A DNA stretch of 64,000 nucleotides from Candidatus Sericytochromatia bacterium (GTDB lineage: Bacteria; Cyanobacteriota; Sericytochromatia; S15B-MN24; VGJW01): assembly GCA_035285865.1 (NCBI GenBank), contig JAYKHS010000028.1, forward strand, positions 32,001 to 96,000, written 5' to 3'. Made by a program: the position numbers and the translations under genes. The notes beneath the pieces were generated by a model. It saw nothing but the letters and a program-made list of their open reading frames with translations. It did not search any database and was not told the origin of the DNA. Below are positions 34,770-49,818 of the stretch, one piece after another (the stretch's first letter is position 1; each line of letters starts with the position of its first letter).

Positions 34770-35351
34770 GTGGCCGTCCTCCACTACGGCAGGCGAGAGA
34801 TCCGCTCCCGGGTGGCCTATTTCGGTCCCGTGGGCTCGGGCAAGGCCTCGAATCTCTTGGCGTTGCAGGACCTCTGGCCCGTTGAGCGCCGGGGAGCCGT
34901 CGTCGAGGCGACCCCGGAAAGCGAACGCGCCGTGCGTTGTTTGCGCCTGCCCATGCTGGGTGACCCGGTCGGCGACTGGTCGGTGCGGTTCGAGGCCTTC
35001 ACGGTGCCCGGGCAGGCCCAGTTTCCGAGCACGCGGGCGAATCTGCTGGCCGGCGCCGACGGAGTCGTTTTCGTGGCCGACGCCGCCCCTGCCAGAAGAG
35101 AAGCGAACGTCGCCGCCTGGCACGAGTTGTTGGTCCACGTCGTGGCACAGGGCATCGATCCCGAGCGGATGCCCATCGTCATCCAGATCAACCACGCCGA
35201 TGTCCGCGACGCCTTGGGCGTGGGGGAGATTGCGTCGCAACTCGGGGTCGAAGTCCGCCCTTCCTTCATGGCCATCGCCCGGGACGGCAGAGGTGTGCTC
35301 GAGGCCTGGATGGCAGTCGAGGGCCTGATCCGCATGGACTGGCGTTCATGA
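34770..35351 (+). CDS. mglA: MglA-like small GTPase (degenerate motifs)
   Basis: REI..YFGP.GSGKASNL, TVPGQ, GADGVVFVAD, NHAD. Confidence 0.8.
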   Translation: MAVLHYGRREIRSRVAYFGPVGSGKASNLLALQDLWPVERRGAVVEATPESERAVRCLRLPMLGDPVGDWSVRFEAFTVPGQAQFPSTRANLLAGADGVVFVADAAPARREANVAAWHELLVHVVAQGIDPERMPIVIQINHADVRDALGVGEIASQLGVEVRPSFMAIARDGRGVLEAWMAVEGLIRMDWRS

Positions 35352-37288
35352 AGGCCGCCTCCTCTGGCATCGGCAGCGCCCGGCCAGGCAATCTGTGGCG
35401 CGAGGCCGACGGACTGTACGACTTCATGAGCCGTGCGGTTCTCCTGCTGGTCGCCGAGCTCGATGATGCCGACGTGGCCTTCATGGTGCGGGAGGACCCT
35501 TCGCTGCCGTGGCGGGTGTCTGCGTCCCGTCCCGAATGGGAGGCCCAGTTGACGATGGCCTCGATGAGCGGTTTGCTGGCCGGCGTTCCGGCGCAGGGCT
35601 TCGAGGGATGGCAGGTTCGCGATCTGGAAGTCGAGAAGCCCGTGGCTGCCCGGCTGCTGACACGGGGCCCGGCACCGGCACAGGAATCCTGCGATGGCCT
35701 GGCGGCCGGCATCTCCCTCGTCATCGCACGGGACCGTCTGGCTCGGGCGGATGCCGGCATCGGCGAGATCGGGCGGGTGGTCCAGGCCTTGCGCCAGTTG
35801 GCTTCCAACATCCACCAGGCCGAGGATCTTTCGCTGCTGGCCGAGGTCGTCTGTGCCTCGGTGGCTCGTGCCACGGGCGCAGAGGTGGTGGCGCTCTACC
35901 AGCTCGAGGGCGATGCCTTCCGATTGACCGAGGAAATCGGCGTGCATCGCCCGGGCGTTTCCGGCATGGCGGCTGCACTGGCTGCATCGCTTGCGCCGCG
36001 GCAGCCCATTCCCCGGGATGAGGCGGGCTTTCTCTCCCAGGCGCTTTGGGAGGGGCGTCCGGTGGCCATTCCCAATATGGCGGCTGCTGACGGCGCGCGT
36101 GTCGGGCTTGGCCATTTGGGGCTGATGTCCGCGATGGCGGCCCCGCTGCTGACGCCTCTGGACGACTTGGGCGTCCTGCTCGTGGGCAGCCGTGCACCGC
36201 GCCTCTTCAGTCCGACCGAATTGTCCGAGTTGTCCGAGCTGGCCCAGGCGGCGTCGGGAGCCTTGCTGACGTGGCGGCTCCACGCGCGTGCCCAGGAGGA
36301 GTCGCGCAAGGCCAGCGAGCTCATCGCCCGGTTGCATGACCTGACGCGCGCGACCCGTGAGGTCGGCAAGACGCTTGAGGCCAAGCACGCCTGCGAGGCC
36401 TGCGTGCGCCTGCTCCCGCAGTTCATGCGCCCTGCGGAGTGGGTTGATTGCTACCTCATCGAGGGCGACGCATGGCGGCTGGTGGCTGGCTCCAGTCCGC
36501 AGGACGCCAGCCCTCCCGAGTCCTGGCTCTACTACCTTGATCGTTCGGGCTATCCGCCGTCCTTGCGGCTCGAGTCCGATGCGCTGGCGGGCACCGGATT
36601 CGAGGATGCCGGACAGGTCCTGCTGTTTCCGATGCGCATGCAGCAGACCCTGCTTGGCCTGGTCGTCGTGGCGACGGAGCGCGACCTTGCCATGACCGGT
36701 CGGGACATGGCCGAGACGCTGGTGGCCCATGCGGCGTCGGCAGTCTTCAATGCCGAGCAGTGGCGACGGGCGCATGAGCGATCTATCACGGACCCGCTCA
36801 CGGGGGTCCACAACCGTCGGCACTTTGTCGACGTCTTCGAGCAGGAACTGGCCAAGGCCGCCCGTTATCACCGGGAGTTCAGCGTGATTCTGCTCGACAT
36901 CGATCACTTCAAGATGATCAACGATCGCCTGGGTCATCTGGCCGGGGACCAGATCCTGCGCGAGGTTGCGGCCCTGTTGCGCGACAACGTGCGCAAGGTC
37001 GATCTGGTCGCGCGCTACGGTGGGGAAGAATTCGCGTTGCTGTTGCCGGAGACCGGGGATGATGGTGCTCGTGCACTGGCCGAAAAGTTGCGGCATCGTT
37101 TCGAGGCACATCCCTTCAGCGACCAGGATCTGATGCCCGGGCGACAGGTCACGGCCAGTTTCGGGCATGCCTCCTTTGGGCTGGACGGCACGACTGCCGA
37201 GCAGCTGCTGCAGGCCGCGGACGAGGCTTTGTATGCCGCCAAGCGGGATGGCAGGAACCGGGTAGGTTCGCCGTCGAGGAGAGCGTGA
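35348..37288 (+). CDS. GAF-containing diguanylate cyclase
   Basis: TDPLTG, DIDHFKMIND..GHLAGD, RxxD I-site (RKVD), RYGGEEF, ADEALY.AK..GRN. Confidence 0.93.
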   Translation: MKAASSGIGSARPGNLWREADGLYDFMSRAVLLLVAELDDADVAFMVREDPSLPWRVSASRPEWEAQLTMASMSGLLAGVPAQGFEGWQVRDLEVEKPVAARLLTRGPAPAQESCDGLAAGISLVIARDRLARADAGIGEIGRVVQALRQLASNIHQAEDLSLLAEVVCASVARATGAEVVALYQLEGDAFRLTEEIGVHRPGVSGMAAALAASLAPRQPIPRDEAGFLSQALWEGRPVAIPNMAAADGARVGLGHLGLMSAMAAPLLTPLDDLGVLLVGSRAPRLFSPTELSELSELAQAASGALLTWRLHARAQEESRKASELIARLHDLTRATREVGKTLEAKHACEACVRLLPQFMRPAEWVDCYLIEGDAWRLVAGSSPQDASPPESWLYYLDRSGYPPSLRLESDALAGTGFEDAGQVLLFPMRMQQTLLGLVVVATERDLAMTGRDMAETLVAHAASAVFNAEQWRRAHERSITDPLTGVHNRRHFVDVFEQELAKAARYHREFSVILLDIDHFKMINDRLGHLAGDQILREVAALLRDNVRKVDLVARYGGEEFALLLPETGDDGARALAEKLRHRFEAHPFSDQDLMPGRQVTASFGHASFGLDGTTAEQLLQAADEALYAAKRDGRNRVGSPSRRA

Positions 37289-43058: not shown

Positions 43059-44001
43059 GTCGCCTGCGGCTGCCCTCGGTCACCAGCCACGCTCCCTGTC
43101 CCGCCGTGACGGAGCCCAGCTCGCGCCAGCCCGGGGGCAGCGCGGCTTCAGGGGGGACGCAGGCGACAAGCCCGTAATCCTCGCCGCCGGCAAGCTGCCA
43201 CTGCCGAACGTCGGCTTCCGCGGCAACGGCCAATGCTTCCAGTGTGTCGTCTCCGGCCAGCTGTGCGTCCCGGATCTCGATGGCGACTCCTGAGGCCTCG
43301 GCGAGGGTTGCGGCAGAGGTGGCGAGGCCGTCCGAGTCGTCCATCAGGGCGAGACGCTCCATTTCGTACCAGGCGTCTGGCCAGGATGCCGGCTCAGGCC
43401 TGCGCTGGGCCTGCTCGGCACGGATGCGCACGGGCTCGGGGATGGCGGCCTCGGGATGCCGGAGGCACCACAGCCCCGCCGCGGCCCAGCCGAAGGGTCC
43501 GGACGCCACCAGTCGATCGCCGGGCCGCGCCGATCCACGGAGTACAGGGCGTAGCGTGGCACCCACGACCGTGACCGAGAGGCTGATGGGGCCTCGGCTG
43601 CCCGTGGTGTCACCTCCGACGACCGGCACGCCGAAGTGTCGGCATGCGTCGGCGAGTCCTGAGGCGAAGGCTTCCAGCCAGCTGGTCTCGAGATCGCCGG
43701 GAAGGGCCAGTCCAAGCACGCTCCAGAGTGGGTGCCCCCCCATGGCCCGGATATCCGAGACGTTCACGGCCAGTGCTTTCCAGGCGAGGTCTTCCGGGCT
43801 GAATGTGGCCCGCGTGAAGTGGATGTCTTCCACGAGCAAGTCGACCGTGGTCAGCAGGGACGTGTCTGAGGGTATGCGCGTCACGGCCGCGTCATCTCCG
43901 ATGCCGATCCAGGAAGCGGGCAGGCCGGTCCCGTCGAGATGTCGGGAAAGCACGTCGAGAATGCCGGCCTCCTTGATGGCGGCAAGGGTGGTTTTCTTCA
44001 T
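42988..44001 (-). CDS. thiL: Thiamine-monophosphate kinase
   Basis: GIGDDAA, VEDIHF, NVSDIRAMG, GGDT, DSDGL, GGEDY, GWDHF. Confidence 0.93.
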   Translation of the reverse strand: MKKTTLAAIKEAGILDVLSRHLDGTGLPASWIGIGDDAAVTRIPSDTSLLTTVDLLVEDIHFTRATFSPEDLAWKALAVNVSDIRAMGGHPLWSVLGLALPGDLETSWLEAFASGLADACRHFGVPVVGGDTTGSRGPISLSVTVVGATLRPVLRGSARPGDRLVASGPFGWAAAGLWCLRHPEAAIPEPVRIRAEQAQRRPEPASWPDAWYEMERLALMDDSDGLATSAATLAEASGVAIEIRDAQLAGDDTLEALAVAAEADVRQWQLAGGEDYGLVACVPPEAALPPGWRELGSVTAGQGAWLVTEGSRRRLTSRGWDHFLAVDPALPRRRTGP

Positions 44002-44132
44002 CTCTTCTTGACTCGGCTTTGGGCAAGTCTTGGGGTGATTCTCCAGATAATGAAGGCAGGACCCCAGACGTGACGATCTCCTCCGAAGCCTACCCCACTC
44101 CCGGCCAGTGCCGCACGGGGGAGACGGACCGC

Positions 44133-45182
44133 GTGCGTCGTGCATGTGGGGGCCCCTTGCTCGCCGCGATCGTGGCGCTGGCCACCACGGCTTGCGGTGT
44201 CACCGGAACCGGCATCCGCGATCTGGACCGTCCTGCCGCGGCCGCCCCCGATTTGCTGCCTGCGTTCGGTGGACAGGCCCAGCTCCTTCAGGGGGCTCCG
44301 GGTGGCGAGGCCTCCTGGCTTCGTCTCCAGGACGGCGCGCATCTGGTTGTCGTGGCCTCCGATCGACCCGGCGATCGGCATCTCTTCTTCGCGACCAGTG
44401 CCGACGGCCGCAACTGGTCGGCTTTCGTGCCGTTCACGACGGGCGCGCTGACGGACGTCGAGCCGGTGCTCTTCGCCTCTGCCCGCGGTGTCGAGTGCGT
44501 GTTTGCCTCCAATCGATGGCTTGCGCAGTACGCCCTCTACCGCACGACTTTCCGCGACGGGCGCTGGTCTGAGCCGGTTCGCCTCGAACTGGGGGCTGGT
44601 CCGCACCGTGCGCCGGCCGTCGTTCGCTCCGGGGACCGTTGGCTGCTTGCCTGGCAGGGACCCGATGGCGTGCGGGTGGCGTCCTCCGCGGACGGTCAGG
44701 CTTTCGGTCAGGGACGACTGGTTTTGGCGCAGCATGGTGATCCGACGGTGGCCGCGGTCGGTCAGCGGGTCGTCCTCGTGGCGCACCAGCGCAAGGCGCT
44801 GACGGCAAGCGTGCTCGACGGCGAGACATGGTCCGTGCCGGCACGGGTGCCCCTCGCGGCTCCGGCCTGGTCCCCGGCATTGGCCTCCGTGGCGACCGGA
44901 AGCGTGGCGCTGGCTTATGCGACCGCCCCCTCGGATCAGGCACCGGCTGCCCTGGGCCTTGCCCGCTGGGCAGATGCGCGCTGGACCGACATGGGCCGTG
45001 CGCTGTCCACGTCTGCCGAACTGGCCGCACCGGCATGGTGTGCCGGTCCCCAAGCACCCTTGTCGCTTCTGCTGGGTATGGACCTTTCAGGTCTCCAGCA
45101 GGGTCTCGCCCGTGTCACGTGGTCCTCCTTCCCGGAGGACGCCTCTGCCTCGTCGCCCGCCGGAGGTCCCGTCAACCCATGA
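44133..45182 (+). CDS. Lipoprotein with sialidase/Asp-box-like propeller
   Basis: Lipobox TTAC; SADGRNW and SADGQAF Asp-box-like repeats. Confidence 0.65.
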   Translation: MRRACGGPLLAAIVALATTACGVTGTGIRDLDRPAAAAPDLLPAFGGQAQLLQGAPGGEASWLRLQDGAHLVVVASDRPGDRHLFFATSADGRNWSAFVPFTTGALTDVEPVLFASARGVECVFASNRWLAQYALYRTTFRDGRWSEPVRLELGAGPHRAPAVVRSGDRWLLAWQGPDGVRVASSADGQAFGQGRLVLAQHGDPTVAAVGQRVVLVAHQRKALTASVLDGETWSVPARVPLAAPAWSPALASVATGSVALAYATAPSDQAPAALGLARWADARWTDMGRALSTSAELAAPAWCAGPQAPLSLLLGMDLSGLQQGLARVTWSSFPEDASASSPAGGPVNP

Positions 45183-46501
45183 GTGCATCCATGACTGCCG
45201 ATCGCCGCCTGCTGGGCGAAGTGCTCGTCTCCGGCCAGTTCATCACGGCCGAGGACCTCAATCGGGCCTTGTCCGAGCAGCGGGCCACCAACGAGCGCTT
45301 GGGCGAGGTGCTGGTCCGTCTCGGCATCCTGTCCGAAATGGAGTTGCATGCGGTCCTCGCCTATCAGGGCGTAGGTGACATGACGCCAGCGGAGCAGGGC
45401 GCCGCGGTCCGCTACAAGTTGGGTGAGCTCCTGCTCAAGGCGCGTCGCGTCAGCAAGCCCCAGCTGGAGCTTGCGCTCGCCGAGCAGGAGCGTACCAACG
45501 AACGCCTCGGCGAGGTGCTGCTGCGACTCGGTCTGATCTCCGGCTCCGAACTCGAAGCCGTGTTGACGTGGCAGGATGATCATTCCCGTCAGGGGGCCAA
45601 GGCCGTTCGCTTCGTGCTGGGCGAGGTGCTGGTCGCCTCGAAGGTCATCACCCGCGATCAGCTCGAGCAGGCCTTGGCCGAGCAGCAGCTCTCGCGTCGC
45701 CAGATCGGGGAAATCCTCGTCGAGGCGGGTTTCGTCAAGCAGAACCAGATCCTCGAGGCCCTGCGCATTCAGGGCAAGCTGGTCGCAGCCTCGGTCATCG
45801 GCATCATCGGGGCCGCGGCACTGACGGGCTGCGGGACCGGAGCGAGCCTGACGGGCATGAGCGTGTCGGGACTGGCTGTCGATGCCAAGGGTAACCCCGT
45901 GGACAATGTCCGCGGGTCGCGCATTCCCTACAGCACGATGGTCCGGGATGTCCGGACCGTCGCCGGCATGCAGGCCACCCAGGACTTCGCCGATGGGTCC
46001 CGGACCGTCAAGGACGTGCCCTGGTTCCACCAGGCGGCCGTGACGCGGGACGGTTCGCCGGACAACACCTGCGCTCAGGCCGCGATGTCCAGCGTGCTTC
46101 ACTATTGGCAGGGCGACGCAGCACCCGCCTATCAGCAGGTGGTCAACGAATCGAACTACTTCAATCTCGCGACCAACCAAGGCACCATCACCGAGTACCT
46201 CAAGAAGAAGGGCCTCTCGGTCAAGGCTTACAAGAACGGGACGGTCAACTACCTGAAGAGTGCGGTGGACTCCGGAAAACCCGTCATCTGCATGTTGCAG
46301 TTCGAGGTGCCGCACTACATCGTCGTGGTGGGCTACAACGAAGCTCAGGGCACCATCATCTACCACGATTCGATCGACGGTCCCAATCAGACCCTGTCGG
46401 AGCGCAAGTTCCTCAAGCACTGGCACCAGACGTCCATGAAGGACATGCCGCTGCTGGGCGGAGGCAACTACGTGGGGCTTGCCATCGAAGCCTCCCGCTG
46501 A
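45179..46501 (+). CDS. 3x MshEN + internal lipobox + C39-like cysteine peptidase
   Basis: Six LGE.L...LxxxLxxQ motifs in three pairs with 5-aa linkers; hydrophobic stretch ending LTGC; Q..C (NTCAQA), H (HYIVVVGY), D (YHDS). Confidence 0.85.
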   Translation: MSASMTADRRLLGEVLVSGQFITAEDLNRALSEQRATNERLGEVLVRLGILSEMELHAVLAYQGVGDMTPAEQGAAVRYKLGELLLKARRVSKPQLELALAEQERTNERLGEVLLRLGLISGSELEAVLTWQDDHSRQGAKAVRFVLGEVLVASKVITRDQLEQALAEQQLSRRQIGEILVEAGFVKQNQILEALRIQGKLVAASVIGIIGAAALTGCGTGASLTGMSVSGLAVDAKGNPVDNVRGSRIPYSTMVRDVRTVAGMQATQDFADGSRTVKDVPWFHQAAVTRDGSPDNTCAQAAMSSVLHYWQGDAAPAYQQVVNESNYFNLATNQGTITEYLKKKGLSVKAYKNGTVNYLKSAVDSGKPVICMLQFEVPHYIVVVGYNEAQGTIIYHDSIDGPNQTLSERKFLKHWHQTSMKDMPLLGGGNYVGLAIEASR

Positions 46502-46568
46502 CGGGATTCGGCGGCCTCTCCGCCCCCTTGACGGCAGGCCTGTCCAAGGGGGAACATGCCAATCCCCG

Positions 46569-46642
46569 GGGCGATTAGCTCAGTTGGTCAGAGCGCACGG
46601 TTCACATCCGTGAGGTCCACGGTTCAAGTCCGTGATCGCCCA
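46569..46642 (+). tRNA. tRNA-Val(CAC)
   Basis: GGGCGAT/ATCGCCC acceptor; CACGG-TTCACAT-CCGTG anticodon arm; GGTTCAAGTCC; no encoded CCA. Confidence 0.97.
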
Positions 46643-46647
46643 CCTCC

Positions 46648-46678
46648 AAGGTCGTCGGTGACTATCCGACGACCTTTT
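46648..46678 (+). terminator. Intrinsic terminator after tRNA-Val
   Basis: AAGGTCGTCGG-7nt-CCGACGACCTT followed by TT. Confidence 0.8.
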
Positions 46679-46736
46679 GCTTCGGCAGGTCTCCGGTTTT
46701 TGGTCGAAGCTTCAGCGCATCTTTGTTTCTGCTTAA

Positions 46737-46763
46737 GAAACCGCCCTCTCCGGCTGCCGACAA
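46737..46763 (+). promoter_or_regulatory. Sigma28-like promoter
   Basis: GAAA-N15-GCCGACAA versus consensus TAAA-N15-GCCGATAA. Confidence 0.45.
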
Positions 46764-46770
46764 CTCTTGC

Positions 46771-47550
46771 ATGAATCCCTCCTTCCTTCGCCGTGTCCGC
46801 CGACTCCCGGCTGCGCTCGGGGCGGTCGTCGCCTTGATGGGCCTTGTCGGTTGCGGACGCCCTGCGACGACTTCCGCGGTGCCCCGCGGTCCGGTCGCGC
46901 CCATGCTGCAGCCGTCGCCCCAGCAGCCCGTGCCCGGCCAGGACGGGGCCCGGATGGCGACCGAGATCCGCGGTCGGGTCGGCATGGCCTATCAGGGTGC
47001 CACGTCCATCCAAGCCAGCCTGAAGTCTTACATCCACAACGTTCAGACGGGCAAGACGGCCCGCTACGTGCTTGACAGCTGGTTCCAGAAGCCCGGTCGT
47101 TCCGCCTACAAGGTCCGTGAGTCGACCGAGGCCAGCACTATTGGCACCAAGATGATCGTCGACGGCAACGGACAGGTGCAGGTGCGCACCAAGTTCGCCG
47201 GCTTCTGGGTCAACACCACCCTGCCAGAAACCGACGAGCGGACAAGGACCGCGCGCGGAGACGGGATGTCGGATACCGCCTTGCCGCGCATGATGCAGGT
47301 TTTGCTCGATCCGCAGGCCCAGGTACAGTTCCTTGGTCAGGCTCAGGTGGCCGGCCGTCAGGTCTCGATTCTGGAACTCCGCAGCGCGATGATGCTGCCG
47401 CGCGTCACACACGAGCGCTATGCCATCGACATGGCGACAGGCATGCCCTACAGCCGCGAGTGCTACGAGGCCGGCAAGCTGACCTATCAGCTGACCATCG
47501 AACAGGTCCGCCTCAACCAGCCCGATCCGGCCGCCTTCCTGCTGCAATGA
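46771..47550 (+). CDS. Lipoprotein, LolA-like fold
   Basis: Lipobox LVGC; WFQKPG, IDMATGMP, C-terminal P.AAF. Confidence 0.65.
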   Translation: MNPSFLRRVRRLPAALGAVVALMGLVGCGRPATTSAVPRGPVAPMLQPSPQQPVPGQDGARMATEIRGRVGMAYQGATSIQASLKSYIHNVQTGKTARYVLDSWFQKPGRSAYKVRESTEASTIGTKMIVDGNGQVQVRTKFAGFWVNTTLPETDERTRTARGDGMSDTALPRMMQVLLDPQAQVQFLGQAQVAGRQVSILELRSAMMLPRVTHERYAIDMATGMPYSRECYEAGKLTYQLTIEQVRLNQPDPAAFLLQ

Positions 47551-48798: not shown

Positions 48799-49731
48799 TT
48801 AGTGCATGCTCCACGTGCGTGAGGCTGCCACGCGGCCGATATTCTGCCTGAGTCGCTGGCCAATGCCAGGCTCCGCTGCGACCAGGCGAGCATAGTCCTC
48901 CAGGAGAAAGACCAGGGCCTTGCTGGCGGCGACAGCCGTGACCGTGGCACTGCGCACGGGTTTGCTCTGGATCAGGGCTGTCTCACCGACGATCTGATCC
49001 GGACCCAGACGCGCGAGCGCGAACGGACGACCATTCTGAATCACGGAGACCTCGAGTTGGCCTTCGAGGATCAACAGGAAGCTCGTGGCCGGATCTCCGG
49101 TCTGGAAGAGCTCCATGCCTTCGGCAAGAGGGACCACGCGTGCCACGGACTCGAGGGCGAGGCGTTGTTCATCCGTCAGACCCGAGAAGACCGGATGCCG
49201 CCGGATGCGTTCGAGTCGCGCCGCGCGCTCCTCCGAGATGCCCGTGGGTTTGGGCATCGCGAACTTGCCAGTCTTCGGGGCCTGAGCGTTGGCTGGTTCG
49301 GGCTCAGGCTTCTTCTTGGACTGGCTCGCCCACTCCCGCGTGGCCACGACCCGCCCGAGGTTGCTCCGAAGCGTCCTGCCCAGCTTGGGGTCCTGCTCGC
49401 TCAGCGCCTGATAGCCTGCGTACATGAAGCGATAGAGCTTGGCATCGGAAACGGCCACGACATCGGCTCGTCGTTCGGTGTCGTGCTGGATCAGGGGCAT
49501 CTCGCCCACAAGCTGTCCCGGAGCGATGGTGGCGACCGCCATGTCCTGAACCCGCACCTCGAGACGGCCTTCCACCAGCATGAAGAAGGCGTCTGCCTCG
49601 TCTCCCGTTCGGATGACGGCCTGACCCGCCTTTGCCGTGACCCGTTCCGCAATGGCAAAAAGCGCATCCAACTCAGCGGCCGAGAGGCCCATGAACGCAG
49701 GCAGCATCTGCAATCGGGCATGGTTCAACAT
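48799..49731 (-). CDS. Tandem cyclic-nucleotide-binding domain protein
   Basis: Two CNB repeats with GE...R.A.V cassettes and matching LRxNxGRVxAxRxW ends. Confidence 0.88.
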   Translation of the reverse strand: MLNHARLQMLPAFMGLSAAELDALFAIAERVTAKAGQAVIRTGDEADAFFMLVEGRLEVRVQDMAVATIAPGQLVGEMPLIQHDTERRADVVAVSDAKLYRFMYAGYQALSEQDPKLGRTLRSNLGRVVATREWASQSKKKPEPEPANAQAPKTGKFAMPKPTGISEERAARLERIRRHPVFSGLTDEQRLALESVARVVPLAEGMELFQTGDPATSFLLILEGQLEVSVIQNGRPFALARLGPDQIVGETALIQSKPVRSATVTAVAASKALVFLLEDYARLVAAEPGIGQRLRQNIGRVAASRTWSMH

Positions 49732-49818
49732 CCTGCGGCTTCCTCTGCCATGCACCTACCCGTCCGGAGAGCAGGTAAACGGGGGTGGCGACGGCCACAG
49801 ACGGACCCACGGTCGTCG

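Follow-up and report, generated by a model that had tools for sequence, protein, structure and literature searches.

How does a receptor domain of the kind normally found on cytoplasmic ATPases come to stand in front of a lipoprotein signal, and what could it do there? The question is raised by one gene of the window, the 64,000-nucleotide stretch of DNA that was analysed as a whole. The gene and its surroundings contain the following features.

44133..45182, + strand: upstream lipoprotein with an ordinary N-terminal signal; presumed GTG start; Cys codon at 44193
45162-45166 (GGAGG) and 45191 (second ATG), + strand: start region of the 45179..46501 gene
45179..46501, + strand: whole gene, an open reading frame for a 440-aa precursor
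45209..45367, + strand: MshEN_N repeat 1, residues 11-63
45416..45574, + strand: MshEN_N repeat 2, residues 80-132
45614..45772, + strand: MshEN_N repeat 3, residues 146-198
45773..45829, + strand: internal signal-peptide-like segment with Lys200, a hydrophobic stretch (201-214) and a c-region
45821..45832, + strand: lipobox L-T-G-C; Cys218 codon 45830-45832; predicted lipidation site, with a predicted signal peptidase II cut before Cys218
46013..46372, + strand: C39-like papain-fold catalytic core with Gln285 (46031), Cys298 (46070), His379 (46313) and Asp397 (46367)

The best explanation of the first 217 residues is that they form a c-di-GMP-controlled export leader, and we give this reading a probability of roughly 0.5. 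Three cytoplasmic MshEN_N modules would be joined without linker to an internal Sec-type signal, the last helix of repeat 3 continuing into the signal. Following established export rules, the precursor would insert N-in through Sec, Lgt would lipidate Cys218 and LspA would cut before it. Cleavage would release the C39-like peptidase, 223 residues long, as a lipoprotein at the external face of the membrane. The occupancy of repeat 3 by c-di-GMP would then decide on engagement of the translocon, on cleavage or on degradation of the precursor. Judging from the sequence, export and cleavage of the cargo are probable, while gating by the ligand overall stands at about an even chance.

The three MshEN pairs with their five-residue linkers (RATNE, ERTNE and QLSRR) are present as the earlier note had described them, with half-motifs starting at residues 11, 40, 80, 109, 146 and 175. 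The codon positions it had given for Cys218, Cys298, His379 and Asp397, listed above, are exact. Profile searches and structure prediction recovered the three MshEN_N repeats and the C39-like domain. The predicted model of the 440-aa protein (74 sequences; mean pLDDT 81.9, pTM 0.60) consists of three repeats of four helices each, one helix spanning residues 188-214 and a papain-like domain. When the protein was shuffled 10,000 times, a string made of K/R, a hydrophobic stretch and a lipobox appeared in 5 cases.

NCBIfam NF053729 matched three stretches of the protein with 155.8 bits, as compared to a cut-off of 38. By sequence, the closest solved relatives of the repeats are PilF and MshE chains, and the model of a homologue aligned to 5HTL with a Z score of 6.5 and an rmsd of 1.6 over 58 residues. 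All six half-motifs keep L/I-G, the two later Leu/Ile positions and the final Gln, with Ile in place of Leu in the last half. The L-G pair, the leucine cluster and the final Gln are near-invariant across 74 homologues, and Gln198, the final Gln of repeat 3, is found in 137 of 137 aligned leaders. Six halves in three pairs had been claimed and are indeed there; they are not perfect motifs, however, as only two of the six fit Wang's relaxed consensus, which includes R/K/P/N at the first Arg and G/A/S at the second Gly position. The first half of each pair is devoid of the second Gly, and repeat 3 carries Val and Gln at the Arg positions. The Pfam matches DUF4388, DUF2949 and FumaraseC_C lie over the repeats and were regarded as side matches. 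An Atlas search with the leader returned one match at 0.75 and was uninformative.

The deviation of four half-motifs from the consensus would suit repeats that are no longer nucleotide sensors and serve as a protein-binding or localisation tag, docking the precursor on a partner or on a secretion site. Non-binding domains of this type do exist: the MshEN-like domain of XpsE does not bind c-di-GMP (PMC5013675, part consulted), nor does PilF GSPII-A, in spite of its near-consensus sequence (PMC12002112, part consulted). On the other hand, the Gly, the leucine cluster and the Gln, reported to count most in binding, persist in every one of the six halves as well as across phyla. Moreover, Lys or Leu replacing the first Arg raised the affinity of PilF GSPII-B according to the relevant section of PMC11731258, so that Lys or Leu at this position is compatible with tight binding. 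We therefore consider a tag distinctly unlikely. From their sequence, the three MshEN_N modules are predicted to bind c-di-GMP in the cytoplasm.

Ten open reading frames of the source genome match the repeat profile. Other proteins with several MshEN copies are encoded there at C3:26659-27453, C22:85358-85750 and C14:38630-40465, two of them apparently stand-alone.

The C-terminal part was matched by Pfam Peptidase_C39_2 (PF13529) over residues 279-398, with 44.1 bits against a cut-off of 24. Gln198, Cys218, Gln285, Cys298, His379 and Asp397 are invariant in 74 aligned proteins. The best match by both profile and fold is 3ERV (Foldseek E 1.6e-4); the other fold neighbours include leader peptidases, a phytochelatin-synthase-like enzyme and a pseudomurein endoisopeptidase. 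The domain thus shares the papain fold and the Gln/Cys/His/Asp set of the C39-like peptidases (PF13529; B. anthracis 3ERV; ComA/PCAT; Nostoc Alr0975). In contrast to the PCAT/ComA C39 leader peptidases, it is not fused to an ABC transporter and belongs to a predicted lipoprotein; Pfam matches and the model gave no transporter domain within the 440 aa. The link between Cys218 and the catalytic core is variable and modelled with lower confidence. As far as the sequence can tell, the most likely place of action of the peptidase is the envelope, together with the propeller lipoprotein encoded upstream.

The segment between repeats and peptidase carries what a canonical lipoprotein signal carries, namely a basic residue, a hydrophobic core and a lipobox with an invariant Cys. 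Its position departs from that of a canonical signal, in which the Cys lies within about 35 residues of the N-terminus; here it is residue 218. The protein may function in the manner of a lipoprotein, though it is not of the canonical type. All 75 family proteins have a lipobox behind the last repeat; counted from the final Gln, its Cys stands at +20 in 74 of them and at +19 in one. In genome loci, it was at +20 in all 26 that could be parsed (27 loci, one unparsed). Cys218, whose loss in homologues would have told against the earlier note, is invariant in 74 of 74 aligned homologues. While the number of repeats ranges from about 2 to 4 among loci, the length of the junction is constant.

In 89 leaders, residues 199-210 show the same level of conservation as the repeats (mean entropy 1.93 for the first half of the signal as compared to 1.81-2.17 for the repeats), Leu201 being present in 93%. 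Small residues at 204, 208 and 211 share one helix face. Between families, identity reached 0.445 for the internal signal and 0.444 for the catalytic domain, as compared to 0.16 (ungapped) or 0.25 (gapped) for the ordinary signal of the neighbouring gene and 0.31 for its mature part; this comparison covers 131 pairs from 20 genomes, and its control is one gene that is less conserved overall. It omits G013, G023 and G026 for suspected paralogy, which the adjacency data do not support for G013 and G023, and in G016 the script took an earlier Cys. Four-fold sites are less conserved in the signal (0.44) than in repeat 3 (0.55-0.65), showing that conservation acts at the protein level; a constraint on the DNA at the junction was ruled out on this ground. 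Finally, a single predicted helix crosses the junction in both models, with a pLDDT of 75 here and of 90 in a pilin-type model. Taken together, the fixed junction and the continuous predicted helix point indirectly to mechanical coupling between sensor and signal.

These features bear on a reading in which export and cleavage are constitutive and the leader is a co-product made 1:1 with the cargo, held in the membrane or freed by an M50 protease, and acting as a c-di-GMP sink or signal. Cleavage would indeed leave behind a fragment of 217 aa that comprises the three MshEN repeats and a hydrophobic tail. The source genome encodes M50 proteases, and stand-alone multi-MshEN proteins occur both in it and in the part of Wang's table consulted (PMC5013675). 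However, a sink should tolerate a flexible linker, whereas the junction has a fixed length and the first half of the signal matches the repeats in conservation. Because of this fixed length between sensor and signal, we rank the sink below gating. It also leaves the repeated fusion to biofilm-type cargo, described below, unexplained, and we hold it to be unlikely.

An internal start could in principle yield an ordinary secreted protein and make the full-length fusion incidental. Two residues past the final Gln, 31 of the 36 Geobacterales loci have a Met; in the class studied here, 6 of 26 loci have one at +3. Yet the present locus has no in-frame ATG, GTG or TTG from -30 to +7 codons around Gln198. 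An in-frame start is likewise absent in 9 of 26 parsed loci, and no start position is common to the loci. A Shine-Dalgarno word near the junction is missing in 24 of 25 loci. Shine-Dalgarno pairing of -5 kcal/mol or below was found for none of the 31 Geobacterales +2 Met codons, as compared to 33 of 36 N-terminal starts and 58 of 293 other internal ATGs. For the N-terminal starts the best candidate was chosen, which biases the comparison in their favour. Initiation independent of a Shine-Dalgarno sequence is possible at the Geobacterales +2 Met. For this locus, a separate lipoprotein made from an internal start, which the earlier note had named as a refutation, was rejected, there being no in-frame start.

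Word-index searches with cargo only, of limited reach, gave no leaderless form. With C39 alone, the 3 matches among 93 candidates were all shorter members of the fused family; with the pilin cargo, 73 matches were obtained, of which the 9 short ones inspected proved to be truncated fusions or to start within the signal. An internal start is extremely unlikely as a general explanation. No sigma-70 promoter-like site was found within 43700-46900, and a search of a plasmid collection gave no match. One metatranscriptome, with 7% of words, yielded 5 short contigs, one of them spanning 45660-45966 with 43 differences; these contigs are not evidence of expression.

We then considered how widely the gene occurs. 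The protein search returned at least 200 matches; among the 120 listed, 74 share the whole architecture, several of them named Ca. Sericytochromatia. At E<=1e-30, the leader was matched in 24 of 26 relatives from the same order, once in each, and in 2 of 14 genomes from other orders of the class. In a 301-genome sample of the phylum, at 1e-10, it was matched in all 47 genomes of the class and in 1 of 254 others, a count that includes other MshEN proteins. Inspection of 20 of these loci showed repeats, lipobox and C39 in 19; the remaining one, from outside the class, is without signal. In 20 of the 26 order relatives, the upstream lipoprotein gene is a direct neighbour on the same contig, and in 2 more it stands beside a contig-end fragment of the gene. 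Two others have it on another contig or are without a full leader match, and two have no match. Overall, the gene occurs almost throughout its order, in most cases behind the propeller lipoprotein gene.

The ATGA overlap by which the earlier note had coupled the two genes is present in the sequence (stop codon 45180-45182). The propeller fold it had assigned to the upstream product rests on weak matches, BNR_2 at E 2.4e-4, below the cut-off, and Atlas features at 0.87-0.90, suggestive of a BNR/sialidase-like propeller. The source genome encodes Lgt, LspA and M50 proteases, and gave 7 GGDEF matches. There are two Lgt-family genes (C4, C19) in its 2.8 Mb, one of which might serve unusual substrates.

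The same leader is reused on unrelated exported cargo. Homologues with a constant leader and a variable cargo had been suggested as something to look for, and the spread found goes far beyond that suggestion. The other 46 among the 120 matches listed keep three repeats and the hydrophobic segment while the cargo has changed. A genome scan, from which 80 of at least 285 loci were kept, placed the leader in L001-L032 and L034, that is in Sericytochromatia, Geobacteraceae, Smithella and other Syntrophales-type deltaproteobacteria, Nitrospirota and one alphaproteobacterial bin. Two Burkholderiales loci, L037 and L045, have a two-repeat form, and L067 has a longer variant; the rest of the 80 are other MshEN proteins without the hydrophobic segment. 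Among 1.84 billion representatives of 50% clusters, 349 matched at 1e-10. The 150 of these that were listed include 107 with an uncharged hydrophobic segment directly behind the last repeat (93 without and 14 with a lipobox), 31 without the segment and 12 that end at the last repeat. As the homologue sets were retrieved by queries containing the signal, these figures show existence and spread, not unbiased frequency. In the order of the cultured Geobacter sp. OR-1 (L021), which itself has three leader copies, the leader was matched in 42 of 151 genomes, the maximum being 4 copies, and all 36 distinct loci inspected have the segment.

The 95 cargoes long enough to be clustered, of which 4, from the longer variant, were added by hand, comprise 53 of one Ig-like family, 9 C39, 9 fn3/Big_7, 5 Sel1, 4 TSP3-type and 3 triheme cytochromes, the rest being pairs or single. 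Further cargoes are Big_5+GH5, a beta-helix, CAP and a full SCPU pilin (P0310). The lineages carrying them are Geobacterales, Nitrospirota, Syntrophales and Burkholderiales, with lipobox or AxA sites. We take the named cargo families to be of kinds found outside the cytoplasm. Three CXXCH motifs are present in the cargoes of L032, P0213 and P0241; haem c is attached only after export. PapD/usher genes were found at 8 of 16 loci with Ig-like (pilin-like) cargo as compared to 0 of 19 others, and the fold of this cargo weakly resembles pilins and filament subunits (best Z 7.6, rmsd 4.4, 122 aligned). In a scan of 83 selected ORFs, the GH5 and beta-helix forms sat among glycosyltransferase genes. 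Within the 78 leaders without lipobox, A-x-A occurs at +19 to +30 in 48, as compared to 22, 10 and 7 in three later windows. On a tree of repeats 2-3 built by a quick method (69 rows, 137 columns), cargo labels cluster, with 19 cargo changes against a shuffled mean of 33.4 and a least possible number of 12. Since 37 of its 66 branches are open, no order of cargo swaps is claimed.

The peptidase is therefore one cargo among many and not the core of the system. The diversity of cargoes also weighs on a further alternative, in which the hydrophobic helix is an uncleaved anchor and the chain a one-piece inside-out receptor, LapD and LapG in one, whose outer domain is switched by helix packing. The best 19-residue hydropathy of this protein, 1.99, and the small residues on one helix face speak for such an anchor, and LapD/LapG offers a precedent (PMC3032545, part consulted). 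But the lipobox is invariant in this family and AxA is enriched in the others, one allosteric switch is unlikely to suit so many unrelated cargo folds, and the link from Cys218 to the core is variable and of lower model confidence. In addition, pilins must be released in order to polymerise. All in all, the anchor is very unlikely.

Coming back to the export leader, its wider form is a portable signal peptide having a second-messenger receptor as n-region, so that c-di-GMP would switch Sec export or signal-peptidase cleavage of any fused cargo. We put this form forward tentatively, a little short of an even chance. The cargoes so controlled would be pili, adhesin-like proteins, polysaccharide enzymes, cytochromes and an envelope peptidase, in several phyla. 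As many of them are pilins, Ig arrays or polysaccharide enzymes, high c-di-GMP would more likely permit export than block it. The overall interpretation of the earlier note is partly supported, having passed the checks on Cys218, on internal starts and on variable cargo.

c-di-GMP is known to act on transcription, riboswitches, enzymes, secretion ATPases and, via LapD, one periplasmic protease. If true, a sensor within an export signal would add a further layer of control, exerted on each precursor by itself. Among known MshEN_N receptors (V. cholerae MshE, 5HTL; T. thermophilus PilF GSPII-A/B/C), the part of PMC5013675 consulted describes the same paired 24-residue motifs with 5-residue linkers, and PilF has three MshEN copies, as has this protein. 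Unlike MshE and PilF, the latter has no MshEN_C subdomain and no ATPase, and its output would be a signal peptide. The part of Wang's Supplementary Table 4 examined (PMC5013675) shows no (MshEN_N)3-signal-cargo architecture. It does contain an MshEN_N-Peptidase_M23 protein from the same phylum (Acaryochloris NlpD, AM1_1153), in which MshEN_N sits on an envelope-type peptidase. That protein differs by having one repeat and M23 instead of C39, and is given there without comment on topology.

Ligand-controlled access to a signal peptidase site is described, in the parts consulted, for the anti-sigma factors RsiV and RsiP (PMC4183432, PMC6066255, PMC8844934). In their case the ligand lies outside and a cytoplasmic sigma factor is the output, whereas here the predicted ligand is inside, the exported part would be the output and signal peptidase II is implicated. 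In LapD/LapG, cytoplasmic c-di-GMP controls a periplasmic cysteine protease, as proposed here, by reversible sequestration between two proteins (PMC3032545, same part); the present case would involve one precursor chain, an MshEN sensor, a C39-like protease and predicted cleavage. No GGDEF-EAL receptor or LapG-type family was among the Pfam/NCBIfam matches of the protein. RsiV and LapD/LapG would thus be functional analogues, not the same system.

The open literature, to which the search was confined, gave no paper on an MshEN-signal-peptide leader, and the part of PMC12943098 consulted holds no description of it. Nor did this search yield a report of Lgt or LspA activity behind a folded domain of 200 residues. 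The parts are known, and a second-messenger receptor as n-region of a swappable export signal is without description in the literature searched. If the reading is right, signal peptidases and Lgt accept signals behind such a folded domain, and the leader is a ready-made switch for ligand-controlled secretion. The analysis also flags exported proteins that N-terminal signal predictors likely miss. The leader can be fused to a reporter and a cultured strain has three copies of it, which makes the idea directly testable.

Some minor observations concern other leader loci. Long proteins with Hpt domains, 5-8 MshEN matches, a signal-like segment and a TSP3/dockerin-type tail were found at L067:3760-6957 and in P0273, P0274, P0278 and P0302; in these L067-type proteins, a variant of the leader lies behind chemotaxis-like domains. 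At L033:2718-3738, in an Actinomycetota bin, the leader match runs over two frames, which may reflect a frameshift or misbinning. A gene of about 1,900 aa immediately precedes a lipobox-type leader with unnamed cargo in L019, L026 and L027; in L027, the one scanned, this gene contains an OmpA domain. Within the window, tRNA-Val(CAC) lies directly 3′ of the gene (46569-46644). It is followed at 46723-47550 by a lipoprotein-like ORF that is without a Pfam family and gave matches in 31 of 41 genomes, at most 7 in each. A protein consisting of two cNMP-binding domains only is encoded at 48802-49755 on the minus strand, and the best GGDEF match of the genome is a protein encoded at 35348-37288, about 8 kb upstream.
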